In this document: in pieces, positions 3,582-56,670 of the stretch
How the letters are laid out: each line of letters starts with the position of its first letter
Position numbering within the stretch: the first letter of the stretch is position 1
Translations under genes and position numbers: made by a program
NCBI GenBank assembly: GCA_031409715.1
Contig: JANNXU010000084.1
Coordinates: 63,704-127,703 of the forward strand
Origin: Gemmatimonadaceae bacterium
GTDB lineage: Bacteria > Gemmatimonadota > Gemmatimonadetes > Gemmatimonadales > Gemmatimonadaceae
Direction of reading: 5' to 3'
DNA length: 64,000 nt
Notes under the pieces: model-generated
Seen by the model: the letters and a program-made list of their open reading frames with translations, nothing else
Databases searched by the model: none
Told to the model about the DNA's origin: nothing

Positions 3582-5621
3582 ATGCTATCCTACGTCGACC
3601 GTAATCCTCTCCCTTTTCGCCGGCCCCACGTGCCTGATCCGGTAGATGCCACCGCCGACAACGAGTTGTTGGCGCGAGTGGAGCGCGCCCTTGCACCGCA
3701 GTACGAGGTGGAAGGTGAGCTCGGGCGTGGCGGCATGGGCATCGTCTATCGCGCCCGCGACACGCGGCTGAAGCGCTCGGTGGCGGTGAAGCTGCTGCCG
3801 CCCGAGCTGGCGTACCGGACGGAGATCAAGTCCCGCTTCCTGCGCGAGGCGGAGATGGCTGCCCAGCTCTCGCATCCGAACATCGTGCCGATCTATTCGG
3901 TCGACGAGAAGGACGGGCTGGTGTACTTCATCATGGCGTGCGTGGACGGCGACAATCTCGGGAAGCAGATGGCCACGCGCGGCCCACTGCCGGTGGCGGA
4001 GGTGCGTCGCATCATGCGGGAGGTGGCGGGTGCGCTCGCCTTCGCCCATGCGCGCAAGTTCATCCATCGCGACATCAAGCCGGACAACATCCTGGTCGAC
4101 AAGGATGACGGCCGCGCCATCGTCACCGACTTCGGCATCGCGCGCGCCGTGCAGGATGGCGCCGAGACGCGGCTCACGGCGACCGGCATCGCGATCGGCA
4201 CACCGGCGTACATGAGCCCCGAGCAGTGCGCCGGCGAGCGCGAGATCGATGGCCGTGCCGACCTGTATGCGCTGGGCACGCTCGGCTACCAGATGCTGGC
4301 GGGGCGGCTGCCGTTCGAGGCGACCAGCACGCCGGCGCTGCTCGTGAAGCAGCTCTCGGAGAAGCCGCGGCCGATCGTTGAACGGCGCCCCGACACGCCC
4401 CCCGACCTCGCGGGCATCATCATGCGCCTGCTGGAGAAGGACCCGGCGGCGCGCTTCGGGACGGCGGACGAACTCGCGGCGGCGCTCGACGGGCGAATCT
4501 CGTCCGGCTACAAGGCCCCGCCGGCCAACCGCACGCCGACACCGCTGATGAGTCAGTCGCCGCAGCCGTCGTGGGTGTTCGACGGGTCGCGGTCGGCGGC
4601 GGGCGGTGCCGTGCCGTCCGCGCCATACGGTGCCGCAACCAGCGAGGAAGTCGCGCGCTGGTATGCGCCGCAGGTCGTGAAGTTCCGGAAGGGCCTCGCA
4701 CCGTTCCTCACCTTCGCCGGCGTGGCAGTGGCGCTGAAGATCGTGAATGTCGTCGACCTCACGGTGGTGCCGGCGTTCTGGTCGATCGGCATCGCGATGG
4801 GCTACGCGAAGCTCTGGCAGGCAGGTTTCGACTGGCGCGACGTCTTCAAGCAGCCGCGCCACGTGTTGCTGGCCGATGTCGTCTCGGAAAAGGCGGATGA
4901 CGTGCAGGCGCTGTGGGACCCGAACAAGCGCAACATCGTCCGCGAACGGCAGCGGCTTCGTGTCGAGTCGGGCTCGGACGGTTCGTTCTACTCGGCCACC
5001 GACCGGATGATGAGCGACGGCGCGCTGCCGCCCGGCGTCACGCCCGGGTCGCCAGCGGCCGAGCAGGCACGGTACGGTGCGTGGTACGACGCGGTGCGTG
5101 ACGGGATCGGCGACCGGGCCGAGATCCAGCGCATGTACGAGTCGCTGCCGAAGGGAGAGAAAGGCATCGCGAGCGGGATCGTCGCCAACGCTGACGAACT
5201 GCTCTCGGCGGTGAAGTCGGAGGCCGCACAACTGGCGGACCTCGACCGCAACCCGGTCCAGCTGCCGGATGTCGCGCGCATCGAGCAGGAGATCACGCTG
5301 CTGGAATCGCAGGCGAATCCGCTCGAGCAGCGCAGCGAGGAGCGGGTGCGCCGCCTGGTGCGGTTGCGCCGCGAGAGTCGGCAGGCGGCCACGGAATCCG
5401 ATCGCCGCCGACGGTCGACCGACCGGCTGGAGCGCGCGCGGGCGGCGCTGCGGTCGATCCGCTTCGAGCTGGTCAAGCTGCGCACCGGCGCGTCGGCCTC
5501 GGGATCGACGGTCCACGTGACGCAGCTGGCGGAACGCGCGCAGGAGCTGGCGCGTGACGTCGACGCCGTGCTCGCCGCGGTTGGCAGCACGGGGTCGCGC
5601 GCGCCACGGGGCACCCGCTGA
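3582..5621 (+). CDS. Ser/Thr protein kinase (Hanks type) with two TM helices and a long charged C-terminal tail
   Basis: Motifs: GRGGMGIVYRA glycine loop, HRDIKPDNILV, DFGIARA, GTPAYMSPEQ. These are followed by a Pro-rich linker, hydrophobic segments (LAPFLTFAGVAVALKIV, VVPAFWSIGIAMGYAKLW) and a ~300-aa Arg/Glu/Leu-rich tail. The start at ATG 3582 is an inference, since the upstream ORF part is Pro/Arg-rich. Confidence 0.85.
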   Translation: MLSYVDRNPLPFRRPHVPDPVDATADNELLARVERALAPQYEVEGELGRGGMGIVYRARDTRLKRSVAVKLLPPELAYRTEIKSRFLREAEMAAQLSHPNIVPIYSVDEKDGLVYFIMACVDGDNLGKQMATRGPLPVAEVRRIMREVAGALAFAHARKFIHRDIKPDNILVDKDDGRAIVTDFGIARAVQDGAETRLTATGIAIGTPAYMSPEQCAGEREIDGRADLYALGTLGYQMLAGRLPFEATSTPALLVKQLSEKPRPIVERRPDTPPDLAGIIMRLLEKDPAARFGTADELAAALDGRISSGYKAPPANRTPTPLMSQSPQPSWVFDGSRSAAGGAVPSAPYGAATSEEVARWYAPQVVKFRKGLAPFLTFAGVAVALKIVNVVDLTVVPAFWSIGIAMGYAKLWQAGFDWRDVFKQPRHVLLADVVSEKADDVQALWDPNKRNIVRERQRLRVESGSDGSFYSATDRMMSDGALPPGVTPGSPAAEQARYGAWYDAVRDGIGDRAEIQRMYESLPKGEKGIASGIVANADELLSAVKSEAAQLADLDRNPVQLPDVARIEQEITLLESQANPLEQRSEERVRRLVRLRRESRQAATESDRRRRSTDRLERARAALRSIRFELVKLRTGASASGSTVHVTQLAERAQELARDVDAVLAAVGSTGSRAPRGTR

Positions 5622-7815: not shown

Positions 7816-7869
7816 GTCCACACGGCCTTCCCCGGTCTCAGCGGCAACGGAACATCGCAGCAGCAACGA

Positions 7870-8009
7870 AACAGCAGAACGCCAAGGCGCCGAGGGACTG
7901 AGAGGCGCGAAGGAAGGACTTCTGGGCTAGTCGACCCGCATCGGGAGCGCTGTTCCCAAGGCTGTACGTCGCGTCTTTCGGTTCCTCGGCGCCTTGGCGT
8001 TCTGCTGTT
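7870..8009. repeat. Perfect 26-bp inverted repeat (A-type module pair) between convergent genes
   Basis: AACAGCAGAACGCCAAGGCGCCGAGG at 7870-7895 and its exact reverse complement at 7984-8009. Both are flanked outward by CAG/CAA (left) and GTT/GCT (right) runs. Confidence 0.9.
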
Positions 8010-8040
8010 CAGTTGTTGTTGTTGCTGCTGCTGATTCTGC

Positions 8041-11622: not shown

Positions 11623-12909
11623 GTGAATTCACGTTCCCGACGCCCACGCACTGGTGGTCGCCCGCGCCCCGCTGGCACAGGCCCGACCACCGTCAGTGAG
11701 GCGGAACACAACTTCGTCCCGGAGCCCATCGAGGCAACGCCTGAGGCGATTGCCGAGCAGGCGGCGGCGGACGAGGCGCGCATCACGTTTGCGCAGCTGG
11801 ACTTGGATGAACGGCTGCTCGCCTCGGTGATCGCGGCCGGCTACGAATATCCGACACCGATCCAGCGCGAGGCGATTCCGCTGGCGCTGCGCGGCTCCGA
11901 CATCATCGGCCTCGCGCAGACCGGCACCGGCAAGACGGCGGCATTCACGCTGCCGCTGATCAGCCGTCTGCTGGATGGACCGAAGCGCACGCGCGCCCTG
12001 GTGCTGACGCCGACGCGTGAACTGGCGTTGCAGGTGGAAGAGAGTGTGCGCAAGTACGCGAAGGGCACCGGCATCGAGGTGGCGCCGATCTTCGGCGGCG
12101 TGCCGTACGAGCCACAGGAGACCGCGCTGCGTCGCGGGGTGGACATCGTGGTCGCCACGCCGGGCCGCCTGCTGGACCATCTCGAGAAGCAGAACATGGT
12201 CCCCGACGATCTCGAGGTGCTGGTGCTGGACGAGGCGGACCGCATGCTCGACATGGGGTTCGCGCCGCAGATCAATCGCGTGGTGGAGCAGATCCCGAAG
12301 TACCGCCAGACGCTGCTCTTCAGTGCCACCATGCCGCCCGAGGTCGAGGCGCTGGCGCGCAAGTACCTGCGACGCCCGATCGTGGTGCAGGTGGGCCGCC
12401 GCTCGAGCGCGGCGGTGACGGTGGCGCATGCCGTCTATCCGGTGCCGGCGGAGAAGAAGGTGGACCTGCTGGTGCACCTGCTGCAGCAGCCGAAGATGGA
12501 CTCGGTGCTGGTGTTCACGCGCACGAAGCATGGCGCGGACAAGGTGGTGCGCAACCTCGAGAAGCACGACATCGCGTCGACGGCGATGCATGCCGACAAG
12601 ACGCAGCCGCAGCGCATCAAGGCACTCGAGGGCTTCCGTGACGGGAGCATTCGCGTGCTGGTGGCGACGGACATCGCGCAGCGCGGGCTGGACATCAACG
12701 GCATCTCGCACGTGATCAACTACGACGTGCCGCAGCAGGCGGAGGACTATGTCCACCGCATCGGCCGCACGGGCCGCGCGGCAGCGACGGGTGATGCGGT
12801 GACGTTCATGGCGCCGGACGAGATCGCGATGGTGCGGACGATCGAGCGGGTGATCGGGCAGCAGATCCCGCGGGTGTCGGTGCCGGGCTTCGACTTCGGG
12901 ACTGGTTGA
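11623..12909 (+). CDS. DEAD-box ATP-dependent RNA helicase (RhlE-like)
   Basis: Motifs: PTPIQ (Q motif), AQTGTGKT, PTRELA, VLDEADRM, SAT, HRIGRTGR. The start is GTG, and the N-terminal ~50 aa are low complexity, so the true start may be later. Confidence 0.9.
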   Translation: MNSRSRRPRTGGRPRPAGTGPTTVSEAEHNFVPEPIEATPEAIAEQAAADEARITFAQLDLDERLLASVIAAGYEYPTPIQREAIPLALRGSDIIGLAQTGTGKTAAFTLPLISRLLDGPKRTRALVLTPTRELALQVEESVRKYAKGTGIEVAPIFGGVPYEPQETALRRGVDIVVATPGRLLDHLEKQNMVPDDLEVLVLDEADRMLDMGFAPQINRVVEQIPKYRQTLLFSATMPPEVEALARKYLRRPIVVQVGRRSSAAVTVAHAVYPVPAEKKVDLLVHLLQQPKMDSVLVFTRTKHGADKVVRNLEKHDIASTAMHADKTQPQRIKALEGFRDGSIRVLVATDIAQRGLDINGISHVINYDVPQQAEDYVHRIGRTGRAAATGDAVTFMAPDEIAMVRTIERVIGQQIPRVSVPGFDFGTG

Positions 12910-12940
12910 TTTGTTTTGCTTCAGTGGCGACAGTAACTGC

Positions 12941-13375
12941 AACAGCAGAACGCAGAGTCGCCACGGGACAGAAAGGCGCAGAGGGTGTGCGGTGTCCGGT
13001 TGCGGTCTGACGGGGGCATGATTTGCGAAGGGCAGGTAACGCTGTAACGGCAACGGCAACGGCAACTGCTTGACGCCAAGGCGCAAAGGCACGGAGGTGC
13101 AACGCTGTCGGCCCGCGCGATGTTCGGTGGTGCGAGGGTGTTGTGTGCTCGAACGGCTGGAGGATCTGCGCTCGCGAGCGCAATTCCTCCAGCTTTTTTG
13201 CGGCGGGTGGCGTCAGTTCCATCGCGTCTCGTGTGACCGACCGCGTTGCGCCTTTGCGTCAAGCCGTTGACGATGCCAGACGCGCCGATCGACCGCTGCG
13301 ACCACGCGCGCTGTTCCCCCAGTACTTCTTTGCGCCGTTCGGTCCCTTTCAGTCCCTTTGCGTTGATGCTGTTCC
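12941..13375. repeat. Composite nested inverted repeat: A unit, (AACGGC)3, B unit, terminator, B', A'
   Basis: The A unit starts at 12941. Hexamers occupy 13046-13069 and the B unit starts at 13070. B' lies at 13243-13264 and A' at about 13310-13375. See findings for the sequences. Confidence 0.8.
13156..13199 (+). terminator. Rho-independent terminator of the helicase gene
   Basis: GCTGGAGGA-(tctGCGCTCGCGAGCGCaat)-TCCTCCAGC followed by TTTTTT. The inner GCGCTCGCGAGCGC is itself a perfect palindrome. Confidence 0.85.
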
Positions 13376-13392
13376 AGCCGATTGCTGCGAAG

Positions 13393-13812
13393 CTATGCGC
13401 GGCGGATGCGGCCGATGCGGGAGATGGCGAGGGCGGTCGAGGCGCTGCCGCGCGTGATGGTGATGGTGGCCGTCGCGGCGCCCCAGCCGATGCCGGTGGG
13501 ACCGAAGGCGATGGAGTCGCGGGTGGTGGTGATGCGCACGCCGTAGGTGTCGAGTCGCAGCGTCCGGATCGTGTCGGCGCCGGCGAACACGGTGAGCGTG
13601 TTGCCGCTGGTGTCGATCCGGACTGCCGTCCGCCGAGCCGCGGTGAGCGCCATCGTGCGTGCGTCGGCCAGCGTGCGCGCCGCGTCGACGGCGGCGAGGC
13701 GGACGGTGATCCGGTCGCGCATGCCGACCAGCGCCGGGAGCGCGACGCCGGCGAGGACGGCGGTGATGGTGAGGGCGATCAGGATTTCGGGCAGGGTGAA
13801 GCCGGTGCGCAT
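13393..13812 (-). CDS. Prepilin-type N-terminal cleavage/methylation domain protein (GspH/FimT-like pseudopilin)
   Basis: MRTGFTLPEILIALTITAVLAGVALP matches the class III signal (G/FTLxE). GGAG lies 7 nt upstream of the ATG. Length is 139 aa. Confidence 0.85.
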   Translation of the reverse strand: MRTGFTLPEILIALTITAVLAGVALPALVGMRDRITVRLAAVDAARTLADARTMALTAARRTAVRIDTSGNTLTVFAGADTIRTLRLDTYGVRITTTRDSIAFGPTGIGWGAATATITITRGSASTALAISRIGRIRRA

Positions 13813-15970: not shown

Positions 15971-17050
15971 ATGCGCATTGCCCTTTCCACCGGTGGTGGC
16001 GACGCCCCGGGCCTAAACGCCGTCATTCGCGCCGCCGTACTGTCCGCACTGGACCGCGGCTGGGAAGTCCTCGGCATCAAGCGCGGGTATTACGGCCTGC
16101 TCGGCGAGGACGACGTCGTCCCCATGACGCGGGACATGGTGGCTGGCATCGCGCACCTCGGCGGTACGATCCTTCGTACCACCAATCGCGGCAACCCGTT
16201 CTCCTATCCCGTGGCGAACGGGGACGGGACGTTTCGCGAAGTCGATCGCTCGGACGAAGTCGTGGCCAACGCGCGTGCGCTCGGCATCGATGCCATCATC
16301 ACCATCGGTGGTGACGGTTCGCTGTCGATCGCGCAGCGGCTGGTGGAGAAGGGGATGCAGATGGTCGCCGTGCCCAAGACCATCGACAACGACGTCAGTG
16401 GCACGATCACCACGTTCGGCTTCGACACGGCGGTGACGACGGCGATCGAGGCCATCGACAAGCTCCACACGACGGCCGAGAGCCATGATCGGGTGATGGT
16501 GCTGGAGGTGATGGGGCGTGACGCCGGCTTCATCGCGCTGCACGCCGGCGTGGCCGCCAGCGCCGATGTCGTGCTGATCCCGGAGATCGCGTTCGACGTG
16601 GAGAAGGTCGTGAGCAAGATCCGCTCGCGTGACCTGAACGGTCGTCGCTTCTCGATCGTGGTGGTGGCGGAAGGGGCGGTGCCGATTGGGGGCGAGGAGT
16701 CGATTCTGGGTCCGTCGATGCCGGGTCAGGCGAAGCGTGTGGGCGGGCTGGCCGGTCCGCTGGCGCGCACGCTGCAGGAGAAGACCGGCAAGGAGGCGCG
16801 CTCGTTGGTGCTCGGTCACCTCCAGCGCGGCGGCCAGCCGACGGGCTACGATCGTCTGCTGGCGACGCGATTCGGTGGCGAAGCGGTCCGCGCGGTGGCG
16901 GAGGGGAAGTGGGGCCACATGGTGGCGCTGCAGTCGCCGAACATCGTGACGATCCCGATCGTGGAGGCGCTGCGCGAGGTGAAGCGCGTGGACCCGAAGC
17001 ACGACATCGTGCTGACCGCTCGCGCGACGGGGATCTCCTTCGGCGACTGA
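15971..17050 (+). CDS. pfkA: ATP-dependent 6-phosphofructokinase
   Basis: Motifs: MRIALSTGGGDAPGLNAVIRA, ITIGGDGS, PKTIDNDV, MGRDAGFIAL. The start is moved to ATG 15971, in frame with ORF 15941. Confidence 0.92.
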   Translation: MRIALSTGGGDAPGLNAVIRAAVLSALDRGWEVLGIKRGYYGLLGEDDVVPMTRDMVAGIAHLGGTILRTTNRGNPFSYPVANGDGTFREVDRSDEVVANARALGIDAIITIGGDGSLSIAQRLVEKGMQMVAVPKTIDNDVSGTITTFGFDTAVTTAIEAIDKLHTTAESHDRVMVLEVMGRDAGFIALHAGVAASADVVLIPEIAFDVEKVVSKIRSRDLNGRRFSIVVVAEGAVPIGGEESILGPSMPGQAKRVGGLAGPLARTLQEKTGKEARSLVLGHLQRGGQPTGYDRLLATRFGGEAVRAVAEGKWGHMVALQSPNIVTIPIVEALREVKRVDPKHDIVLTARATGISFGD

Positions 17051-18013: not shown

Positions 18014-18154
18014 TCGAGGACAATCGAACGCCGTGGTCATTTGCCGCCTCTTGCCGCCACGTAAAACACCGAGCTAAAACGCGAATGCCCGGCGGCTTTC
18101 CTGCGCCGGGCTTTGTCGTGTCCGGACGGCATTCCCGTGAGAGAGGTACAGTTC

Positions 18155-19132
18155 ATGTCCCGCAAGCCGATCGCCGTTTACCACGAGCATCCCGACTGGT
18201 TCCGCCCGTTGTTCGCTGAACTCGAGCGACGAGGAATCGCGTACGAGCGGCTGGATGCGGCCGCGCACCTGTTCGATCCGGCGGAGACCAGCGCACCGTG
18301 GTCGCTGGTGTTCAACCGCGCCAGTCCGTCGGCGTACCTCCGCAACCATGCGCAGACCACCTTCCACACGCTGCACTGGCTGCGGCATCTGGAGGGGATC
18401 GGCGTGCCGGTCGTGAACGGTGCGCAGGCCTACGCCTACGAGTTGTCGAAGGCGACGCAGCTCGACCTGCTGCGCGAACTCGGGCTGCCGTTTCCGAAGG
18501 CGCGCGTGATCAATCATCCGTCACGCGCGGTCGAGGCGACAAACGGTTTCCGCTTTCCCGTGCTGGTGAAGGCCAACATCGGTGGCAGCGGCGCGGGGAT
18601 CGTGCGCTACGAGACGGTGGAGGCACTGGCCGACGCGGTGGCGGACGGCACCGTCGACCTGGGCGTCGACAACACGGCGTTGGTGCAGGAGTCGGCGCCG
18701 CTGCGTGACGGGCACATCACGCGTGTCGAGACGCTGGGCGGGAACTACCTGTATGCGATCAACGTGTATCCGCCGCAGGACAGCTTCGACCTCTGTCCGG
18801 CCGATGCGTGCCAGACGACTTCGGGCGCGCAGCTCGTGCGCGGCGCATGCGCCATCGATGCGCCGACGTCGGGGATGCGCGTCGAGGCGGCGCATCCGCC
18901 GGCGCACATCATCCAGCAGGTGGAGCAGATCTCTCGCGCGGCGAACATCGACGTGGGCGGGATCGAGTACCTCGTGGACGACCGCGACGGGCAGCACTAT
19001 TTCTACGACATCAATGCGCTCAGCAACTTCGTGGCGGATGCGCCGAACGTGATCGGGTTCGATCCATTCGTGACGCTGGTGGACTACCTCGAGGCGCGGG
19101 TGGCTGGGGCGCCATCACTGGTGACGACGTGA
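18155..19132 (+). CDS. ATP-grasp domain protein (RimK / glutathione-synthetase-like fold)
   Basis: MSRKPIAVYHEHPDWF...; FPVLVKANIGGSGAGI; a GAGAGG Shine-Dalgarno sequence lies 8 nt upstream of ATG 18155. Confidence 0.75.
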   Translation: MSRKPIAVYHEHPDWFRPLFAELERRGIAYERLDAAAHLFDPAETSAPWSLVFNRASPSAYLRNHAQTTFHTLHWLRHLEGIGVPVVNGAQAYAYELSKATQLDLLRELGLPFPKARVINHPSRAVEATNGFRFPVLVKANIGGSGAGIVRYETVEALADAVADGTVDLGVDNTALVQESAPLRDGHITRVETLGGNYLYAINVYPPQDSFDLCPADACQTTSGAQLVRGACAIDAPTSGMRVEAAHPPAHIIQQVEQISRAANIDVGGIEYLVDDRDGQHYFYDINALSNFVADAPNVIGFDPFVTLVDYLEARVAGAPSLVTT

Positions 19133-19311: not shown

Positions 19312-20610
19312 ATGACATCCACGGTCGTGCCCAGCACCGCGAACCGCCTCCGCTCGATCGTCGGCGGGTCGGTCGGCAACCTCGTCGAGTGGTACGACTG
19401 GTACGCCTACTCGGCGTTCTCGCTCTACTTCGCGAAATCGTTCTTCCCGCCGGCCGACCAGACCGTGCAGCTGCTGAACGCGGCGGCGGTGTTCGCGGTG
19501 GGCTTCCTGATGCGGCCACTCGGCGGGTGGCTGATGGGTCGCTACGCCGACCGGCACGGGCGGCGCACGGCGCTGACGGCGTCGGTGCTGCTGATGTGCG
19601 CCGGGTCGCTGCTGATCGCGGTCACGCCGACGTACGCGCGCATCGGCATGGCGGCGCCGGCGCTGCTGGTGATCGCGCGCATGCTGCAGGGTGTGAGTGT
19701 GGGCGGCGAATACGGCGCGAGCGCGACGTACCTGAGCGAGATGGCGGGGCACGAGCATCGCGGGTTCTGGTCCAGCTTCCAGTACGTGACGCTGATCATG
19801 GGGCAGCTGCTGGCGCTGGGTGTGCTGCTGGTGCTGCAGCGCACGATGAGCACGGCGTCGCTGGAGATGTGGGGGTGGCGCATCCCGTTCGTGATCGGCG
19901 CGGCCTGTGCGCTGGTGGCGGTGACGCTGCGGCGCGGCATGGAAGAGACGACCGCCTTCACGCGCACCGTGCAGCCCGGCACCACGCGCGGGTCAGCACT
20001 GGCGGGACTGCTGGCGCACCCACGGTCGGTGGCAACGGTGTTCGGGCTGACCGCCGGCGGGACGGTGGCGTTCTACACGTTCACGACGTACGCCCAGAAG
20101 TTCCTGGTGAACACGGCAGGATTCACCAAGTCGGATGCCACGCTCGTCTCGGCGGCGTCACTGGCGATCTTCATGTGCGTGCAGCCGCTGGTGGGGACGA
20201 TTTCCGATCGCATCGGTCGGCGCCCCGTGCTGATGACGTTCGGTGTGGTGGGCACGCTTGGCACGCTGCCGCTGCTGACGGCATTGTCGAAGGCGGCGAC
20301 ATTCGGGAGTGCGCTGCTGCTGCTGACGCTCGCGCTGCTGGCGGTGAGCGGCTACACGGCGATCAACGCGGTGGTGAAGGCGGAGCTGTTCCCCGCGCAC
20401 GTGCGGGCACTGGGTGTGGCGTTTCCGTATGCGATCGCGGTGTCCGTGTTCGGCGGCACGGCGGAGTATCTGGCGCTCTGGTTCAAGAACATGGGCCACG
20501 AGCAGTGGTTCTACTGGTACGTGACGGCGTGCATTGCAGTGAGTCTGGTGGTGTATGCGACGATGCCGGAGACGCGGCACAGTGCGGCAATGCGCGAGGG
20601 TGAGGGGTGA
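19312..20610 (+). CDS. MFS transporter, metabolite:H+ symporter family (KgtP/ProP-like)
   Basis: Motifs: VGNLVEWYDWYAYSAF and the RPLGGWLMGRYADRHGRR loop (MFS motif A). About 12 hydrophobic segments are present. The start is moved from GTG 19291 to ATG 19312. Confidence 0.88.
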   Translation: MTSTVVPSTANRLRSIVGGSVGNLVEWYDWYAYSAFSLYFAKSFFPPADQTVQLLNAAAVFAVGFLMRPLGGWLMGRYADRHGRRTALTASVLLMCAGSLLIAVTPTYARIGMAAPALLVIARMLQGVSVGGEYGASATYLSEMAGHEHRGFWSSFQYVTLIMGQLLALGVLLVLQRTMSTASLEMWGWRIPFVIGAACALVAVTLRRGMEETTAFTRTVQPGTTRGSALAGLLAHPRSVATVFGLTAGGTVAFYTFTTYAQKFLVNTAGFTKSDATLVSAASLAIFMCVQPLVGTISDRIGRRPVLMTFGVVGTLGTLPLLTALSKAATFGSALLLLTLALLAVSGYTAINAVVKAELFPAHVRALGVAFPYAIAVSVFGGTAEYLALWFKNMGHEQWFYWYVTACIAVSLVVYATMPETRHSAAMREGEG

Positions 20611-24208: not shown

Positions 24209-26866
24209 ATGCGTGACATCCGCGACCGATACCTCCCGCCCGACCCGGATGCCTTCCGGGAGGCGCGACCCGCCCGTGGGCGCGTCATCATCATCGCCCC
24301 CACCCGGGCCGCCTGCGAGACGATCGAGCTCGCCTTCACGCTGAACCTCCAGACGTACCTGGAGACGCACCACGGCACACGCCTCCGCGAACTGGCGGCC
24401 AGCGGGAAGGGCTTCGGGATCGTCGCCGGCACGGGCACGGGCAAGACGCTGGCGGTGCGCCCGATCGCGGAAACGATCCTCGGCGAAGCGCTGCGCGTCG
24501 GCGTGATCAACCGCGAGCGCGAGGCCACGCCGGAGACGCCACAGTGGAACGTGATCATCGTGACCACCGGCATCGCGCGGCGCTGGTTTCAGGACGGTGA
24601 CATCGACGAGCACGACACGGTGGTCGTGGACGAGATCCACCAGACCTCGGCCGAACTCGAACTGTGCCTGGCACTCGGCAAGCGGGCGCGCTGCCGCTTC
24701 ATCTGGCTGTCGGCCACCGTCGATCCGTCGTTCTACTCGCAGTATCTCGACAGCGGCGACGTGCTGGAGGTATACAGCTTCGACGAGGCGAAGAAGGCGA
24801 CGGTGGAGGTGCTGACGCGCAGTCCAGCCGACTTCCTCGACGACAAGTTCCTGAAGAAGGTGATCGCGGAGCGCCGCGGCGTGGCGATGTTCCTGCCGAC
24901 GCGCGCCGGCACGGAGGATGCTGCGCGGCACGTGCAGGAGAGCTACCCGAAGATCCACGCGCAGCACTACCACGGCGGTGAGCCGATCCGCGTGATCCGG
25001 CAGTATCTGGACGAGGGCGGTGTGCCCAAGCCGTTCTTCCTGTCGATGACGGCAGCCGGTCAGAGCGCGATCACGGTGCAGGGGCTGGACACGGTGATCA
25101 TCGACGACACGCGATTCACCAACATGGTCGACAAGGGTCGCAACGTGCTCACGCGCGTGCACCTGGGTGCGAACGAACTGCTGCAGATGGCGGGTCGCGT
25201 GCATGGACGCGTGGCGGGCGGACGGGTGTTCATCCTGTCCGATCGCCGCATCCCGTTCGAGCAGCTGCGGCCCGAGTTGCCCGAGTTCCAGCTGGCCGGC
25301 GACAGCGAGCGGGTGGCGATCACCTGCGCGGCGATCGGTGTGCGCGCCGACGATCTCGAGCTGCCGGTGCCGCTGGACAGGGTCGCCTACCGCCGCGCGG
25401 TGGCGCTGCTCGAGACGCGCAACCTCGTCGCCAACGGTCGCCTGACGGACTACGGCCGCGCTGTCGAGAAGATGCCGGTGGAGCGGCCGTGGGCCGAGCT
25501 GCTGGTGAACAGCGACGACGACCTGGTGCCCTACGTGGCGGTGATGAGCGGCGTGGAAAGCCTGCACAGGATGACGCGCGAGGATCGCAACCTGGACAGC
25601 ATGCTGATCCCGGGCAGCGACCATCTGACGGCGTACAACGTGTATGCCGAGGCGTTCACGAAGTACGGGTACGTGGGCACCGTGTATGGATTACCGCGCC
25701 AGCTCTTCCACGACGAGATCGCGGAGTGGGCGGAGGTGAAGGGCGTGCTGGTGAAGTCGCTGGAGGATGCGGCGCTGGCGATGGCGAGCGTCTATCGCTC
25801 GTTGAATGCGCCGTTGCCGACCGCGTTGCCGAGGGCAACCGAGGCGACGCGGGCGCGCTTCAGTGAGCTGCTGGCGCAGGTGATGCCGTTCGACCTCGTG
25901 ATCGACGAGGAGACGGCCTGGGGTGAGAGTGCGCGCGTGGGGAAGACGAGCGTCTGCGGGAGCTGGGGCGCGGTGGCGGGCACCCTGCGCTTCTTCGCCG
26001 ACCGGATGGGTATCCCGCGCGCGTCGATCGAGGGGACGCAGATCGCGCCGGCGCTGCTGCGGACGTTCGCGCACTACGGCGAGAGCACGCTGGCGTACGA
26101 CCCGCACAAGCGGCAGGGGCAGCTCGTGCGCACGCGGCGTGTGACGTACGGCGGCTTCGAGCTGGAACGCGAGACGGAGGTGCTTGGCGACTTCACGCCC
26201 GACGTGGCATCGCAGGCGCGCGACGTGCTGGCCGACGCGTTCGCGACGGAGCAGGTGCGCCATCCGGCCCTGGAGCGCAATCGTCCGATGGTTGCGGAGG
26301 CGCGTGAGGTATGGCGGCGCAGCGGCGGTGTGACTCGACGCGTGTCACAGGCCGATGTGGCGGCGTGGTATCGCGCGCGCATCGACGGTGTGGAGTCGGT
26401 GAATGACCTGAAGCACCTGCCGCTTCGGATGACGTGGGACGACTGGGTGTCACCGGAGGAACGAGCGCGCTATGAGGCGTTGCCGCACATGGTGAGCGTG
26501 CGGGATCGCCAGGTGCCGGTGGAATACGACGTGGAGGAGCGCGACGACGGCTCGCTGTTCGGCGTGGCGAAGCTGCGGCTGCCGGAGAAGCTGGCGCGCA
26601 CGCTGGTGACGGAGGAACTGCCGCCGTTCGACCGTCCGTACCGCTTCGTCGTGCTGCGTGGTCAGCGTGGCTCGGCGCGGGGTCGTACGCTGGACGAGTT
26701 GCAGGAGGCGCTGGATGCGCCGTGGATGCCGGACGAACTGGCGACGCTCGGTGACTCGTATGGCGCGCGGAAGGGTGGTCGTGAGCGAGCGCGCGAGGAG
26801 TACCAGCGGGGGAAGGAGCGACGGTCGGTCATTCCGCCCAGGAAGCGGGGCCGGAAGGGGCGTTAG
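24209..26866 (+). CDS. DEAH/RHA-type (HrpA/HrpB-like) helicase with an uncharacterised ~450-aa C-terminal region
   Basis: Motifs: AGTGTGKT (Walker A), VVVDEIHQ (motif II), LSATVD (III), QMAGRVHGR (VI-like). Length is 885 aa. Confidence 0.85.
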   Translation: MRDIRDRYLPPDPDAFREARPARGRVIIIAPTRAACETIELAFTLNLQTYLETHHGTRLRELAASGKGFGIVAGTGTGKTLAVRPIAETILGEALRVGVINREREATPETPQWNVIIVTTGIARRWFQDGDIDEHDTVVVDEIHQTSAELELCLALGKRARCRFIWLSATVDPSFYSQYLDSGDVLEVYSFDEAKKATVEVLTRSPADFLDDKFLKKVIAERRGVAMFLPTRAGTEDAARHVQESYPKIHAQHYHGGEPIRVIRQYLDEGGVPKPFFLSMTAAGQSAITVQGLDTVIIDDTRFTNMVDKGRNVLTRVHLGANELLQMAGRVHGRVAGGRVFILSDRRIPFEQLRPELPEFQLAGDSERVAITCAAIGVRADDLELPVPLDRVAYRRAVALLETRNLVANGRLTDYGRAVEKMPVERPWAELLVNSDDDLVPYVAVMSGVESLHRMTREDRNLDSMLIPGSDHLTAYNVYAEAFTKYGYVGTVYGLPRQLFHDEIAEWAEVKGVLVKSLEDAALAMASVYRSLNAPLPTALPRATEATRARFSELLAQVMPFDLVIDEETAWGESARVGKTSVCGSWGAVAGTLRFFADRMGIPRASIEGTQIAPALLRTFAHYGESTLAYDPHKRQGQLVRTRRVTYGGFELERETEVLGDFTPDVASQARDVLADAFATEQVRHPALERNRPMVAEAREVWRRSGGVTRRVSQADVAAWYRARIDGVESVNDLKHLPLRMTWDDWVSPEERARYEALPHMVSVRDRQVPVEYDVEERDDGSLFGVAKLRLPEKLARTLVTEELPPFDRPYRFVVLRGQRGSARGRTLDELQEALDAPWMPDELATLGDSYGARKGGRERAREEYQRGKERRSVIPPRKRGRKGR

Positions 26867-26965
26867 TCGGTGTGGCTCGACGGTCTCCACGAGCAACACG
26901 TTTCGTCGGTGTGGCTCGACGATCGTCGACAGCAGGACGCTTTGTCGGTGTGGCTCGACGATCGT

Positions 26966-26982
<17 letters not shown>
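26866..26982. repeat. 39-bp tandem repeat x3 starting at the helicase stop codon
   Basis: GTCGGTGTGGCTCGACG(G/A)TC... begins at 26866, 26905 and 26944. The tail of the third unit merges into the A-type module. Confidence 0.9.
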
Positions 26983-27180
<198 letters not shown>

Positions 27181-27226
27181 AATCCGTGTGCTTCGTGGGC
27201 GGTGATTGCCCGGAGACGGCGTTGGA

Positions 27227-27240
27227 GGACCGTTCGGTCC
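27227..27240. promoter_or_regulatory. 14-bp palindrome GGACCGTTCGGTCC (distal copy of the putative TetR operator)
   Basis: The palindrome is perfect and is followed by TAGTGA. It has the same half-sites as the copy at 27352. Confidence 0.5.
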
Positions 27241-27351
27241 TAGTGAAATGCTGAAAAGTTCGTGGTCGAAAGGTCGTCCTGGTTGCTGCTTGCCGCGTAA
27301 GTCATTCTCTTGCAATGACTTGCGCGGCTTTTCCGTTCGGGGTTGCGTATT

Positions 27352-28080: not shown

Positions 28081-28704
28081 ATGTCGGCAACGCAGCAGCA
28101 GGAACGGACGAGAACGAAGGGCAACGCAGTCTCGCGCAGCGAGGCGCCGCTCGAAGGCCGTGCGCGGTTCGAGGCCGAGGCGTTGGTGCATCTTGATGCG
28201 ATGTACAGCTTTGCTCTGAAGCTGTCGCGTTCACGGGACGACGCTGAGGATCTCGTGTCCGACACGATCCTTCGTGCCTTCGAGCGCTGGGAGCAGTACC
28301 GACTCGGCACCAACATCCGGGCGTGGCTGTTCACGATCCTCTACCACGTCTTCGTGAGTCGCAAGCGTCGGATCGACGCGCGCGAGGTGCAGGCCACGGA
28401 CGAGACGGATGGCTGGGGCGCATTCGAGCCGGTGGGCGAGGCGAACCCCGAGGCGCGCTTCTACGAAACGTTCCTCGACGCGGAGATCACGACGGCGATC
28501 GACAACCTGCCTGACGAGTATCGTGCGGCGGTGGTGTTGTCGGACATCCACGAACTGCGGTATGCCGAGATCGCACACATCCTCGGGGTGCCCGAGGGGA
28601 CGGTGAAGAGCCGCCTGTTCCGCGGGCGTCGCATCCTGCAGAAGAAGCTGGTGGGGTATGCGATGGACATGGGGTACATCAAGTCCGTTCCCGAAGCGGC
28701 CTGA
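28081..28704 (+). CDS. ECF (sigma-70 family group IV) RNA polymerase sigma factor
   Basis: Region 2 is DAEDLVSDTILRAFERWEQY...WLFTILYHVF. Region 4 is YRAAVVLSDIHELRYAEIAHILGVPEGTVKSRLFRGR. GGGAG lies upstream of ATG 28081. Confidence 0.88.
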   Translation: MSATQQQERTRTKGNAVSRSEAPLEGRARFEAEALVHLDAMYSFALKLSRSRDDAEDLVSDTILRAFERWEQYRLGTNIRAWLFTILYHVFVSRKRRIDAREVQATDETDGWGAFEPVGEANPEARFYETFLDAEITTAIDNLPDEYRAAVVLSDIHELRYAEIAHILGVPEGTVKSRLFRGRRILQKKLVGYAMDMGYIKSVPEAA

Positions 28705-29102
28705 CCCTTGTTCCCGATTCCGTCCTCCGTGTCGCTCCGGCATCGTGAACTCTGTGCACACGGAGGATCGGAGGAACGGAGTCAGGGAGGCGTCGCGATG
28801 TCTGCTGTCTGGTCTCAGCGATCATCCCGAAGCGACCCTCGGTTTCAGGTGCTGTGTGGGCTCAGTGATCATCCCGGAGTGATCATCAGTCTCAGGTGTA
28901 AGCGAAAAATATTCGCCCCCGGAGAGTCATTCCCCCGCATCTCGCGCTCGGCTGCCTGGACCGGCGCAGAGCCCTCGCCACCTCCGCTGCTCCCATCCTC
29001 CGCGTGAAAAGAGTTGACGTTGCCTGTCAACCGCACAAGCATCGAGCCCCTGCACCTCACTGAGAGGGCAGGGGCTCGTTACTGATCAGAGGCACGGGCG
29101 AG

Positions 29103-34466: not shown

Positions 34467-34474
34467 CCCCGGAT

Positions 34475-34795
34475 CGGTGCTGAACAGCTTCAACAGCTTC
34501 AAGTCTTTGACAGCTGAACAAAGACAACGCCAAGGGAACTGAGAGGAAACGGAAAGGACGCAGAGAACGGCTTTTTGAATGGAACTGCCTGGGTGTCGTG
34601 CGGTGTGCAGCGTGCACCGGGAATGACCTGCTGTTCCAGATACAGTGCCGTTCTCTGCGTTCTTTCGGTTCACTTTGCGCCTTTGCGTTCTTCCTTAGCT
34701 GTAAGGTTCTGCTTTAGCTGTAAGGTTCTGCTTTTGCTGTAGCGTTCTGCTCTTGCTGTAGCGTCTTGGCTGTTGTCGATCTGGACTGATATCGG
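34475..34795. repeat. Module-family inverted repeat with low-complexity flanks, splitting the aldH and DUF779 genes
   Basis: The arms lie at 34526-34571 and 34647-34689. The perfect core is GCAGAGAACGGC (34560-34571) with GCCGTTCTCTGC (34647-34658). The right flank holds about 19-bp tandem units (TAGCTGTAAGGTTCTGCTT x2 plus variants). Confidence 0.85.
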
Positions 34796-41971: not shown

Positions 41972-44491
41972 ATGCGATTCCTCCCGTTCGCGCTCCTGCT
42001 CACGCTCGCACCGGCACTGGGCGCCCAGCAGCGTCCGGCCACCCCGCCGGCGCCCGGCACCACGCCCCCCGCTGCCGCCCCCGCCGCCACCCCTGATGCG
42101 GCGGCGGCAGCGCGGCGTGGTCCACGCCCGTACGCCCAGGTCATCACCGGTCGCGCCGTCACCCGCGCCGGCATGATCACCGTGCACAAGGTGGACGAGA
42201 AGTGGTTCTTCGAGGTGCCGGACTCGATCCTCGGCCGCGACCAGTTGCTCGTTTCGCGCATCGCCGGGGTGCCGGCCGGCTTCGACGGCTTCATCTCGGC
42301 CGGCAGCAGCCTGAACGAGCGGCTGGTCCGCCTCGAGCGCGTGGGTGACCGGGTGGTGCTGCGCGCCCTGAGCGCGAGCGCGTACGCCGACGATTCACTC
42401 GCGATTGCGATCTCGGTCCGCGTGAACAACGTGGGCGCCGTGCTGGGGGCGTTCCCGATCCAGGCGTTCGGCCGCGACAGCGCGTCGTACGTGCTGGACG
42501 TGACGGACTTCTTCTCGGGCGACACGCCGGCGCTCTCGGGGCTCGACGCCGCTCAGCGTCGCACGTATCAGGTGCGGCGCCTCGATCCCGCGCGCTCGTC
42601 GCTGGACAACATCAAGAGCTTCCCGATGAACGTCGAGGTGTCGCACACGCAGACCTTCGATGCGGGCGCGCCACCGTCGGATGCCGATGCGGCGACCATC
42701 ACGCTGGCCATGCGCCAGTCGCTGGTGCTGCTGCCCAAGGTGCCGATGCGGCCGCGCATCGCCGATGATCGCGTCGGCTTCTTCTCGGTGAATCGCATCA
42801 ACTACGGCCTCGACGAGCAGAAGGCGGCGACCGAGACGTTCATCCGCCGCTGGCGGCTCGAGCCAAAGGACCCCGCGGCCTATGCACGCGGTGAACTGGT
42901 GGAGCCGATCAAGCCGATCGTGTATTACCTCGATCCCGCGACGCCCGCCAAGTGGCGGCCGTACGTTCGTGCCGGCGTGAATGCGTGGGCGAAGGTGTTC
43001 GAGCGCGCCGGCCTCCGGAACGCGGTGCAGGCCAAGGACGCCCCTGCCAAGGCGCAGGACCCCGACTGGGATCCCGAGGACATCCGCTACTCGGTGGTGC
43101 GCTGGACCGCCTCCACCGTGCGCAACGCCGTGGGACCGAGCACGTCGGATCCGCGCACCGGCGAGATCATCGAAAGCGACATCACCTGGTACCACAACCA
43201 CATGCGGTCGTACCGCAACCGGCTGATGATCGAGACGGGCGCCGCGAATCCGGCGGTGCGCACGCTCGACATCCCGGAAGAGGTGATGGGTGAGACGATG
43301 ACCCAGGTGATCACCCACGAGGTGGGACACGCACTCGGCCTGCCGCACAACATGATCGCGTCGGCGTCGTTCCCGACCGACTCGCTGCGGTCACGGAGCT
43401 TCACGTCGAAGTACGGCGTGTCGGGGACGATCATGGACTATGCGCGACAGAACTACGTGGCGCAGCCGGGCGACGGGCTGGCGCCGAAGGACTTCATCCG
43501 CCGCCTTGGCCCGTTCGATGATTTCGTGATCGAGTGGGGCTACCGTGTGCTGCCCACGGCCGCCACACCAGCCGCGGAGCGCCCCATGCTCGAGCGCATG
43601 CTGCGCAGCTCGACGGGGATGTTCGCGTATCGCTACCTGCCGCAGCAGCTCGTGGGCATCGATCCGCGGGCGCAGACCGAGGACCTCGGCGACGATCCGG
43701 TGAAGGCCACTACGTATGCGCTGACCAACTTGAAGACGGTGGTGCCGCAGATCGTGCGGTGGACGTCACGCCCCGGCGAAGACTACGGCGACCTGGCCGA
43801 AATCCACGGCGAGGTGCTGGGGATGTGGTCCACGTACATGGGCCACGTGACGAATGTCGTCGGGGGTATGCGCATCGACCAGAAGGTGTCGGATCAGGCG
43901 GGCCCGGTGTGGCAGGTGCTGCCGGTGGCCCGTCAGCGCGCCGCGCTGCGGTTCCTGACGGCGCAGGCGTTCGACACGCCGGAATGGCTGGTGCCGGCCG
44001 ACGTGATCAACCGCATCGGGCCAGCGGCGACTGGCGCCGGCGCACTCGCCGCGCGGCAGGCGGCGGTGCTGACGGCGCTCACGCAGCCCGCGCGGCTGGA
44101 TCGCATGGCGCAGGGCACGGCGTTGGAGCCGGGCGTGGGCTACGACGTGGCCGGCTATCTCGGTGAACTCACCAGCGCCGTGGTCGGCACGAGCGCGCCG
44201 GACGCCAATCGCCGCCTGCTGCATCGAGTGTACCTCGAACGGATGCAGGCGCTGATCGACCCGCCGGCACCACCGGCCGCGGCACCGGGGCAGGGCGGCG
44301 GTGGCGGCGGCTTCGGCGCGCCGCAGGTGAACGTGCGCCGCACCGACATCTCGGCATCGGCACGGGCGCAGGTGCGTGCGCTGGCGAGTGCGGCGCGCGT
44401 GAAGGCCGTGACGGCACCGGCCGGTGTACAGAAGGCGCACTGGCAGGACCTCGCCGACCGGGCGCAGGCGATCCTGGATCCGCGCCGGTAG
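41972..44491 (+). CDS. Secreted zinc-dependent metalloprotease (large HEXXH protease, DUF5117/DUF4953-like architecture)
   Basis: The signal peptide is MRFLPFALLLTLAPALGAQQ and the zincin motif is ITHEVGHALGLPHN. Length is 839 aa. The domain-family naming is from memory. Confidence 0.85.
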   Translation: MRFLPFALLLTLAPALGAQQRPATPPAPGTTPPAAAPAATPDAAAAARRGPRPYAQVITGRAVTRAGMITVHKVDEKWFFEVPDSILGRDQLLVSRIAGVPAGFDGFISAGSSLNERLVRLERVGDRVVLRALSASAYADDSLAIAISVRVNNVGAVLGAFPIQAFGRDSASYVLDVTDFFSGDTPALSGLDAAQRRTYQVRRLDPARSSLDNIKSFPMNVEVSHTQTFDAGAPPSDADAATITLAMRQSLVLLPKVPMRPRIADDRVGFFSVNRINYGLDEQKAATETFIRRWRLEPKDPAAYARGELVEPIKPIVYYLDPATPAKWRPYVRAGVNAWAKVFERAGLRNAVQAKDAPAKAQDPDWDPEDIRYSVVRWTASTVRNAVGPSTSDPRTGEIIESDITWYHNHMRSYRNRLMIETGAANPAVRTLDIPEEVMGETMTQVITHEVGHALGLPHNMIASASFPTDSLRSRSFTSKYGVSGTIMDYARQNYVAQPGDGLAPKDFIRRLGPFDDFVIEWGYRVLPTAATPAAERPMLERMLRSSTGMFAYRYLPQQLVGIDPRAQTEDLGDDPVKATTYALTNLKTVVPQIVRWTSRPGEDYGDLAEIHGEVLGMWSTYMGHVTNVVGGMRIDQKVSDQAGPVWQVLPVARQRAALRFLTAQAFDTPEWLVPADVINRIGPAATGAGALAARQAAVLTALTQPARLDRMAQGTALEPGVGYDVAGYLGELTSAVVGTSAPDANRRLLHRVYLERMQALIDPPAPPAAAPGQGGGGGGFGAPQVNVRRTDISASARAQVRALASAARVKAVTAPAGVQKAHWQDLADRAQAILDPRR

Positions 44492-44569
44492 GTCGTCAGC
44501 GGTTGGCACGGGGGCCGTGATGGCGCATCGGTCGGGTCGGATCCGCGCCGGTAGGTCGTCAGCGGTTGG
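44476..44569. repeat. 31-bp perfect direct repeat (63-bp period) duplicating the last codons and stop of the protease gene
   Basis: GGATCCGCGCCGGTAGGTCGTCAGCGGTTGG occurs at 44476-44506 and again at 44539-44569. Confidence 0.95.
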
Positions 44570-44607
44570 TGCGAGGGGTGAGCGTCGCGCGCATTAGGCG
44601 CGGGCGC

Positions 44608-49645: not shown

Positions 49646-49720
49646 GGTGACTCGCGGGAGAGGGCGATGCTGGAACGTACCCGCAGGATGGACCCGCGTG
49701 CCGGCCGCAACCCTCAGCAT

Positions 49721-49838
49721 CAAGGGGTCAGAGTCCTTGTGGCGCGGGAGCATCAAGGGGTCAGAGTCCTTGTTGCTCCGACCCAGCAAGGGGTCAGAGT
49801 CCTTGTTGTGCGGGAGCCTCAAGGACTCTGACCCCTTG
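49721..49838. repeat. Four copies of a 19-20-bp motif at exactly 33-bp spacing, the last one inverted
   Basis: CAAGGGGTCAGAGTCCTTGT occurs at 49721, 49754 and 49787. The inverted CAAGGACTCTGACCCCTTG is at 49820. Copies 3 and 4 form a 20-bp perfect stem. Confidence 0.95.
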
Positions 49839-53621: not shown

Positions 53622-53644
53622 GCGACACCGCCAGCGCGAGTGGA

Positions 53645-53718
53645 GTGGACATGAAGTTGGGGCAGCACAAAGCCGGCTGGCGACTGCACCCCGAACTTCG
53701 TTTCCACGTCACTAGATT
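53645..53718 (+). promoter_or_regulatory. pyp upstream element: imperfect inverted repeat ending in CAC-TAGATT, homologous to the ispH element
   Basis: GTGGACATGAAGTTGGGG lies at 53645-53662 and CCCCGAACTTCGTTTCCAC at 53689-53707. TAGATT (53713-53718) is 7 nt from ATG 53726. Confidence 0.55.
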
Positions 53719-53725
53719 GCGCGGC

Positions 53726-54166: not shown

Positions 54167-54208
54167 CTCGGCGTGGCGTGACTGCTGCTGCTCCGACAGC
54201 AACTGCCA

Positions 54209-54586: not shown

Positions 54587-54637
54587 TTGCAGTCGCAGTT
54601 GCAGTCGCCGTCGCTGTTGCCGTGACCGTTGCCCGGG

Positions 54638-56413: not shown

Positions 56414-56670
56414 GGGACAGGTGGCACGCGATGGCGTGGAAGCGTGAAATCGATGACAGGGGAGGGTGGGAGAGGGAGCATACCGAAGAAACACCGAAGC
56501 GCAAGGAAGGCGACAGTGCTGGCGCGACCGCCCTCGCAGACGGTGACGGGCAAAGCCGCCACACACGAAAATGTGACCTTCTCAATTGTTGCGCTCGCTC
56601 GGCAGGTCGTGCGAAAAATCGCGGGACGAAGGCATCAATGGCTGTGTTCGCTTTATGGGCCAGGAAAGGC

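Follow-up and report, generated by a model that had tools for sequence, protein, structure and literature searches.

What is the sequence that separates a DEAD-box helicase gene from a convergent pseudopilin gene in a 64,000-nucleotide stretch of a Gemmatimonadaceae contig (JANNXU010000084.1; hereafter the window, meaning the whole stretch analysed), and why do related units recur in other spacers of the same DNA? The initial annotation of this spacer had described an ordered, nested A-B-terminator-B'-A' layout drawn from a recurrent family of intergenic modules. Following up that description, we find it rather probable that the modules compose a clade-specific, non-autonomous, mosaic palindromic intergenic repeat with nested inverted-repeat modules, which behaves as a lengthened terminator or a hairpin at gene 3' ends. 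Within this group of Gemmatimonadota, the composite has been copied, together with its asymmetry of a long B unit and a short B' unit, to the 3' ends of unrelated genes. The family is previously undescribed; its general kind, that of REP-, BIME- and BOX-like intergenic repeats, is already known from other bacteria.

The recurrence of the modules was substantiated by pattern and profile searches alike. Core patterns were matched 6 times where 0.55 matches were expected and 12 times where 4.7 were, and either count was reached in none of 100 shuffles. Alignment of ten units with MAFFT yielded the consensus AACAGCAGAACGCaAAGGCGCcAAGGgACnGAAAGGCGCAGAGG, and an nhmmer profile recovered exactly seven A units (7868+, 8013-, 12934+, 13374-, 26961+, 34504+ and 34704-; E values 1e-12 to 8e-7) and three B units (13057+, 13275- and 27129+) in the window and nothing further, which agrees with the estimate of about ten copies in 64 kb. 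Identity among the copies is 60-88%. All of them are intergenic, as had been claimed; the accompanying claim that all sit at gene 3' ends holds only in part, since two copies (27137+ and 34704-) lie upstream of a co-directional gene and not behind a gene of their own strand. A scan for T-poor or A-poor runs was also tried as a generic detector and dropped, shuffles at 69% G+C yielding more such runs than the real sequence.

The gene map of the window was based on G+C content at third codon positions (GC3), and all spacers were then read through for a shared layout. The spacers failed this coding test, and the indels that distinguish the helicase-pseudopilin spacer from its ortholog in a relative's contig (L016) are mostly not multiples of three in length, so that the composites are not protein-coding. 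Five spacers, designated loci I to V, have a common layout. Inwards from a stop codon, the composite runs through short-period runs, A, a linker, AACNGC hexamers, B, a central hairpin, B', hexamers and A'; the runs outside A are hexamers or tandem units of 9-39 nt, and the GC-rich central hairpin carries a T tract in some copies. Arrays with periods of 6, 9, 16, 19 and 39 nt were detected by Tandem Repeats Finder, with arrays at every one of the five loci. The low-complexity CAG/CAA/AACNGC runs, first taken for outer borders of the modules, are indeed present, but they are not mere borders: they pair with each other within the arms of the palindrome. A and B are not independent modules but layers of a single composite that is copied as a unit.

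Locus I (spacer 7816-8040, element 7839-8036) lies between convergent kinase and hydrolase genes and consists of a CAG/CAA run, A (7868-7923, +), a 33-nt centre, A' (7957-8013, -) and a TTG/CTG run. Locus III (spacer 26867-27318, element 26866-27173, + strand), between a co-directional helicase-like gene and a TetR regulator gene, is one-sided: a 39-nt tandem in 2.9 copies, A (26961-27016), a hairpin (27020-27051), (AACAGC)11.5 (27064-27132) and B (27137-27173). At locus IV (spacer 34467-34789, element 34483-34775), between co-directional aldehyde dehydrogenase and DUF779 genes, a AACAGCTTC run is followed by A (34504-34576, +), a centre, A' (34643-34704, -) and a 19-nt tandem in 3.9 copies. 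Locus V (spacer 54167-54637, element 54185-54604), between convergent PAS-domain and imuB-like genes, was absent from the copies first listed; it has the same layout built from other units, namely C-type units (CGCAGAACGGCACAGC, a 16-nt tandem) and CTGCAA/AACGGC hexamers, and forms a giant palindrome whose arms are 88% complementary over 106 nt and 93% over 60 nt. This largest palindrome of the window stands directly behind the imuB-like gene.

Locus II, the spacer from which the question arose (12910-13392), is bounded by the helicase gene (11623-12909, +) on its 5' side and by the pseudopilin gene (13393-13812, -; N_methyl and GspH domains; stop codon 13393-13395) on its 3' side. All strings quoted in the earlier description of 12941-13375 were found in place by direct check. 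The A unit (12934-12991, +; nhmmer E 1.5e-12; quoted string from 12941) begins 25 nt past the helicase stop codon and is a purine-rich, T-poor string of approximately 9-nt (N4-5)RAGG sub-repeats with AACTGC/AACAGC hexamers at its head, sharing 88% identity over 48 nt with the copy at 26966. The A-B linker (12992-13045, +) is 69% identical to its ortholog in L016; it differs among the paralogous copies, some of which have a hairpin here, and is not alignable between them. The hexamer run (AACGGC)3-AACTGC (13046-13069, +; period 6, 3.5 copies by Tandem Repeats Finder; inverted repeats I1 and I6) pairs with GCCGTT on the far side, and the number of hexamers varies among loci and relatives. The B unit, whose quoted start at 13070 stands, extends to about 13123 and is of a long form (13064-13123, +; nhmmer E 8.8e-10; 79% identity to L016) composed of GACGCCAAGGCGCAA, AGGCACGGAGGTG and CAACGCTGTCGG, followed by CCCGCGCGATG; the same long form occurs at unrelated loci in contigs L013 and L017.

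The centre of locus II, 13156-13199 (+; inverted repeat I2; 80% identity to L016), holds a GC-rich stem-loop that runs straight into a U tract in the transcript, with a 19-bp stem at 13156-13193 that is 89% complementary and a T6 tract at 13194-13199. This tract lies 3' of the hairpin on the + strand only, and the structure looks like an intrinsic terminator for the helicase transcript alone. A simple terminator scan with a loop rule of 3-8 nt had skipped the hairpin, which was confirmed by inverted-repeat search. The B' unit (13237-13268, -; nhmmer E 1.6e-7; quoted string 13243-13264; 74% identity to L016) is of a short form and pairs with B over 32 nt at 88% (inverted repeat I1). The inverted A' unit (13319-13374, -; nhmmer E 8e-7) stops 18 nt short of the pseudopilin stop codon, and (GCGGTT)n hexamers stand in its place in L016.

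Whether this order is a peculiarity of one spacer can be judged from relatives. The host is placed in Gemmatimonadota by protein searches, the best matches being 90-92% identical and the named ones belonging to Gemmatimonadaceae metagenome-assembled genomes (MAGs). A metagenome scan with the A core returned three contigs, L013, L016 and L017, from one JGI sample series. The same composite stands behind a Gfo/Idh/MocA oxidoreductase gene in L013 and behind a NUDIX hydrolase gene in L017, as full nests of approximately 450-700 nt, so that the nested order described for locus II recurs at independent loci. The L017 nest, of approximately 700 nt, leads from the stop codon through a 25-nt tandem in four copies, A, a hairpin, hexamers and B to the centre, an order shared with locus III, and continues with B', hexamers, an 11-nt tandem in four copies, A' and approximately 160 nt of (GCCGTT)n-type runs. 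Module order is identical in five aligned copies from three assemblies, and unlinked loci keep to it over at least 250 nt.

Two features of these copies bear on how the composite travels. The 5' B arms, in the long form with the extra AAGGCACGGAGGYG, resemble one another at different loci (scores 30-34) more closely than each resembles its own B' (19-21), which shows that an asymmetric composite was copied as a unit and not grown separately at each site. A second L017 copy, which is non-orthologous, has a centre (GGAACTGCGCTCGCGGCTGCAGTTCC) resembling the terminator of the window, with a similar hairpin core (CTGCGCTCGCG). Since the hairpin is kept in the L016 ortholog and a similar centre is found in this non-orthologous copy, the central terminator hairpin probably belongs to the family. 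The earlier view that the modules are more than plain terminators is upheld, although the argument offered for it, namely that a separate terminator sits among them, is not a strong one.

Beyond these contigs, no significant copies were found in approximately 110 kb from relatives L007-L012, nor in L020. Analogues of unrelated sequence and the same architecture surround hairpins of their own in L008 (6325-6518). A degenerate A-core pattern gave only six single matches in the genome collection. The few exact matches to the A-core pattern outside Gemmatimonadota (L001, L004, L005, L006, L015 and L018; MAGs of Gammaproteobacteria, Chloroflexota, Tepidisphaerales and unassigned ones) are mostly intergenic strings AACGCWAAGGCGCARAGGRAC with an inverted partner (CTTAGCGTCTTTGCGTT) 60-110 nt downstream, one of them between pyrH and frr, and they form modest hairpins (z -0.4 to -2.9). 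To go by their letters, such look-alikes may be a widespread sequence style or distant relatives.

The folding predictions indicate that the arms, not the single units, carry the structure. Locus I has a predicted RNA fold of -138 kcal/mol compared to -86 kcal/mol for shuffles (z -11.3), a single hairpin of approximately 190 nt in which the CAG/CAA run pairs with the TTG/CTG run; locus II reaches z -5.2 and locus IV z -6.0; and locus V, at -325 against -188 kcal/mol (z -20.9), is a single hairpin with approximately 190 paired positions per arm. The ten single A and B units folded as single-stranded DNA gave z from -2.0 to +1.2, nine of them inside the shuffle range and the lowest being the A unit of locus II. 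In these models, the purine-rich units gain structure only by pairing with an inverted partner. The purine-first polarity of the arms was considered as evidence for an RNA function and rejected, as it is automatic on both strands of any palindrome.

Compensatory change between paired arms, proposed earlier as a check, is evident in the A arms. Own arms are Watson-Crick at 69% of columns compared to 61.6 +/- 2.3% for swapped partners, and none of 265 derangements reaches 69%; own A partners are beaten in 15 of 720 permutations, or in 2 of 120 with the orthologous locus removed, and a column-wise arm count found 20 columns with two or more pair types. This covariation fits selection or conversion for a hairpin as well as birth by inverted duplication, and cannot separate them.

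Comparison of orthologous sites reveals rapid turnover of the composite. The helicase-pseudopilin spacer measures 483 nt in the window, 427 nt in L016, 313 nt in L021, where hexamers, B, B' and C-type units adjoining B' are present and A is missing, and 94 nt with one hairpin in L020. In L016, A is retained, as are the motif GTCGGCGCGCGCGATG, B', the hairpin with T6, and B, which has three sub-repeats. The aldehyde dehydrogenase-DUF779 spacer has 324 nt in the window against 76-99 nt with a plain hairpin in L007, L008 and L012; the spacer between the helicase-like and TetR genes has 453 nt against 170-193 nt without the composite in L007 and L008. The kinase-hydrolase palindrome is kept in L019, where both arms read AACGCAAAGG in place of the AACGCCAAGG of both window arms, and L021 has an unrelated hairpin in that spacer. 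Modules are thus conserved at orthologous sites in related genomes (L016 and L019); the composite is missing at orthologous sites in relatives at approximately 90% protein identity, and the closest relatives have it in heavily rearranged form. None of the outcomes that the initial annotation had named as grounds for rejecting its description was encountered.

The rates tell the same story by segment. When the window is compared with L016, identity is 88-89% in the coding flanks, 68% at fourfold-degenerate sites and 58% over the whole spacer, with nine indel runs; within the spacer, it is 79% for B, 80% for the hairpin with T6, 74% for B', 59% for A and 39% for the hexamers, and A' is replaced outright. 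Between the window and L019, fourfold sites are 64% and spacer I 71% identical. These figures show that the outer layers change at least as fast as neutral sites, whether by drift or by turnover, and that the inner core of B, hairpin and B' is at most weakly constrained. The family is young and in fast turnover, which argues against a conserved regulatory RNA. Independent metagenome assemblies also break in the modules: L022 has a scaffold gap (approximately 5480-5575) at the helicase-pseudopilin spacer, L013 ends (position 1) in (GCCGTT)n, and L019 ends (position 1) 22 nt past the helicase stop in a module-bearing spacer, which is the behaviour of multi-copy repeats in assemblies. In the TetR spacer, a perfect palindrome GGACCGNTCGGTCC upstream of the TetR-family gene (27227-27240) is conserved in L007 (approximately 4945-4958) and L008 (approximately 4963-4976), relatives without the composite; from its sequence and position it is probably a TetR operator marking the start of a conserved promoter region.

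The statement that no named family could be matched has been sustained by every database consulted. Rfam gave nothing at the gathering threshold over the whole window, noise only at E<=10 on locus II and no match to any module at E<=0.1; two composites searched by blastn in distant mode found no similar DNA among the 72,556 plasmids of PLSDB; and a scan of viral contigs gave 0 matches. In the literature searched, neither REP- or REPIN-type repeats nor any other repeat family were found described for Gemmatimonadota, and none of these sequence strings appeared. No promoter-like sites were found in the region scanned. Readings as a group II intron, a retron, a clustered regularly interspaced short palindromic repeat (CRISPR) array or a DNA-uptake sequence were dropped in view of the lack of Rfam matches, of reverse transcriptase or cas genes, of regular spacing and of copies within genes.

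The composite behaves like the class of BIME, REPIN and BOX elements and is a member of none of those families. BIMEs, built of REP units in E. coli and its relatives, lie outside genes, mostly at gene 3' ends and in convergent spacers, as mosaics of a few unit types in alternating orientation together with other short motifs; their copy number and composition vary by locus and strain, and their predicted hairpins can stabilise upstream mRNA or attenuate transcription. REP carries a conserved GTAG-type head. The composites resemble BIMEs in extragenic placement at gene 3' ends and in convergent spacers, mosaic alternating units, variable composition and predicted hairpins. However, a REP unit is itself a 20-40-nt imperfect palindrome, whereas the A and B units measure 45-60 nt, are not self-palindromic and lack self-structure, and their consensus has no GTAG head; moreover, three to four arm layers are nested round one centre here and not arranged in tandem, paired microsatellite runs are integral, and there is no sequence similarity.

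REPINs are mobilised by RAYT (HUH/Y1) transposases, whose cognate gene is single-copy and has the repeats on its flanks. In a REPIN, two inverted REPs with a poorly conserved spacer form a long hairpin, and the doublet is the evolving entity (PMC3337134). REPINs are approximately 90-150 nt long, with palindromic REP cores of 16-25 nt that are 94-98% conserved within a genome; some have runs of A and T on either side, which may have been co-opted for attenuation (PMC3337134). Likewise, the A/A' and B/B' pairs are inverted doublets with a weakly conserved spacer that form one long predicted hairpin, their centres differing between copies, and locus I (7839-8036) comes closest to a REPIN. The differences lie in the lower inter-copy identity (60-88%), the non-palindromic units, composites of up to 470-700 nt and the absence of a RAYT gene in view: none occurs among the approximately 45 window open reading frames (ORFs) or in the gene tables of the relatives' loci.

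The BOX elements of Streptococcus pneumoniae (boxA-boxB(n)-boxC) have a fixed module order, a variable number of sub-units, complementary ends that form a stem-loop and no transposase of their own. The composites share this modular, ordered intergenic design with variable internal sub-units, complementary outer modules and no transposase of their own, but BOX has one pairing level (A with C), neither purine/pyrimidine arm asymmetry nor hexamer runs, another phylum as host and an unrelated sequence. The Correia/NEMIS elements of Neisseria and the ERIC/IRU elements of enterobacteria are 100-150-nt imperfect palindromes that are co-transcribed with their neighbours, giving long RNA hairpins that are processed and can terminate transcription. 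Imperfect palindromes beside genes with long RNA hairpins, predicted in the present case, are the common ground; those elements, however, have a single layer and clearly delimited terminal inverted repeats, to which Correia elements add a TA target duplication; boundaries of this kind were not found here. A bidirectional intrinsic terminator offers a further likeness, having a GC-rich hairpin between gene ends with a purine- or A-rich 5' flank and a T-rich 3' flank, so that either strand reads as a hairpin followed by a U-rich stretch; the hairpin with T6 at 13156-13199 fits this on the + strand. Ordinary terminators, in contrast, are not dispersed homologous repeats and lack paired arms of 50-200 nt, and most centres here are without a T tract.

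Mechanistically, the repeat would be a non-autonomous element mobilised in trans, or else copied by recombination or template switching at hairpins, and it would settle where a gene-end hairpin is tolerated or already present. Replication slippage would change the number of sub-repeats, and inverted duplication or arm-to-arm conversion would keep the arms matched. At the RNA level, a transcript ending at the centre would carry a single-stranded purine-rich tail and a hairpin; read-through from either side would produce a very long hairpin followed by GUU/CUG-rich runs, which could stop or insulate convergent transcription and block 3' exonucleases. Most hairpins of the window, as seen on reading through the spacers, are without U tracts. 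A bolder version, to which we assign a low probability, depicts a self-propagating "terminator cassette", a palindrome with its own hairpin terminator and layered purine/pyrimidine arms that would spread in a hairpin-dependent manner unrelated to RAYT or DDE enzymes, for example by template switching or an enzyme acting on single-stranded DNA, and that the host would use to insulate convergent genes; the look-alikes in MAGs of Chloroflexota, Planctomycetota and Gammaproteobacteria (AACGCAAAGGCGCARAGG arms with an inverted CTTTGCGTT partner) would then form one ancient cross-phylum class that has gone unrecognised.

Several observations weigh against the interpretation as a copied non-autonomous repeat with terminator-like action. 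Neither the approximately 45 window ORFs nor the gene tables of the relatives' loci include a transposase, integrase or Y1/HUH protein. Orthologous spacers with and without the composite have diverged too far to be aligned, and no target-site duplication or clean boundary could be defined from them. The B arms taken alone show no significant partner-specific similarity (16 of 120 permutations). A canonical T tract is found in only one window centre, that of locus II, so that the terminator role of the composites is putative. The inner core changes a little more slowly than synonymous sites do, leaving scope for a host function. Finally, the copy counts are those of the 64-kb window and the relatives' contigs.

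Such a host function is the core of one rival explanation, in which the purine-rich units are selected RNA modules of 3' untranslated regions (UTRs), single-stranded AAGG/GGA-rich platforms upstream of a terminator hairpin for a CsrA-, Hfq- or ProQ-like protein or the anti-Shine-Dalgarno sequence, with a palindrome arising only where both convergent genes carry the same sense module. We regard this as unlikely. Eight of the ten window units are purine-rich in the sense of the nearest upstream gene, a polarity of little weight since every palindrome has it; the single units lack structure of their own, as would suit a binding platform; A-R-N triplets are the motif of the Hfq distal face, and (AACAGC)n is a perfect run of them; B with the hairpin is slightly more conserved than fourfold sites; and A and B at the one-sided locus III occur in the sense orientation only. 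Nevertheless, the modules are absent from orthologous 3' UTRs at approximately 90% protein identity, A changes at roughly the neutral rate, the closest ortholog has hexamers in place of A' and an antisense arm precedes the co-directional gene at locus IV. The very strong predicted folds and the arm covariation could also be expected of genes for structured non-coding RNAs, either small RNAs or long hairpin RNAs acting in trans, but the lack of any Rfam match even at a permissive threshold, the lack of promoter-like sites in the region scanned, the rapid turnover with many indels between orthologs and the position of copies always directly behind stop codons render that possibility very improbable.

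The similarity of loci could also be ascribed to compositional bias and convergent sub-repeats, each palindrome having grown locally, by slippage and by intrastrand template switching (inverted duplication), round a terminator hairpin that was already there, with no copying between loci. Real arm covariation, private variants shared by the two A arms as mutual best matches in three of six loci, the 88-93% complementarity of the locus V arms, suggestive of a recent inverted duplication, short-period arrays at every locus and the sequence-unrelated analogues round relatives' own hairpins (L008 6325-6518) are all in keeping with it. Yet unlinked loci share 75-88% identity over 48 nt, a common module order (at least 250 nt), the long-B/short-B' asymmetry and, in the second L017 copy, a similar centre, for which bias alone is insufficient. 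Local growth as the whole explanation is hence quite doubtful; it probably adds to copying between loci and cannot replace it. Comparably small chances are given to ordinary miniature inverted-repeat transposable elements or decayed ends of known insertion sequences, with A/A' or B/B' as terminal inverted repeats for a DDE transposase encoded elsewhere. Such elements fit the inverted terminal arms, the small size, the intergenic position, the presence or absence that varies among relatives and the assembly breaks at copies, whereas no target-site duplications were seen (the spacers being too diverged to align), the arms are long, degenerate and nested in several layers instead of one terminal pair, internal sequence is not conserved between copies, no transposase lies nearby and nothing similar occurs in 72,556 plasmids or the viral contigs.

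A mosaic palindromic repeat of this design matters for several reasons. Gemmatimonadota are abundant in soil and hardly studied, and the family shows how elaborate an intergenic palindrome can become in a genome with 69% G+C, with several nested layers, arms of up to approximately 190 paired positions and structural microsatellites. The composites fragment metagenome assemblies and create long spurious ORFs, and could serve as fine-scale strain markers. They present a tractable case of a palindromic repeat that spreads without a visible transposase, and through them it could be tested whether U-tract terminators give way to long 3' hairpins in bacteria of high G+C content.

Other features of the window, whose G+C content is 68.7%, were recorded alongside. 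The imuB-like gene next to locus V (IMS_C domain, 54638-56581, -) and a dnaE2 gene (49893-53708, -) constitute a mutagenesis-cassette-like pair (49893-56581). The coding region of the dnaE2-like gene includes, at 51971-52074, a microsatellite of hexamers and 18-mers that reads (GTTGGT/GGCGGT)n on the + strand, so that hexamer expansion in this genome is not limited to spacers. Just downstream of dnaE2, at 49716-49838, a separate family of 19-nt imperfect palindromes CAAGGGGTCAGAGTCCTTG (stem CAAGG/CCTTG) is present in four copies in both orientations, and related copies occur in more distant relatives (L007, approximately 19600-19660; L008, approximately 16760-16880); judged by its sequence, this family seems closer to a classical REP cluster than the A/B modules are, and it is more widely conserved.

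A dispersed unit ACACGGAGGATCGGAGGAACGGAG, rich in Shine-Dalgarno-like GGAGG, occurs once per orientation at 28739-28781 and 59667-59709, 31 kb apart and both times in a spacer behind a gene; in the region 28704-28790 the pyrimidine-rich arm leads, a polarity opposite to that of the A/B family, and a 47-nt tandem in two copies follows (28803-28898). The convergent spacer of met-zincin and amidase genes (44491-44608) holds a direct repeat of approximately 22 nt (CCGGTAGGTCGTCAGCGGTTGG) with copies 72 nt apart, unrelated to the A/B family. Lastly, Rfam matched the SAM_alpha riboswitch aptamer (RF00521) just below threshold at 18023-18094 (+; 33.1 bits, gathering score 36; E 0.0012). The match extends over the start of an ATP-grasp-like ORF (18065-19132) and could be a divergent SAM-II-type riboswitch outside Alphaproteobacteria or a chance match.

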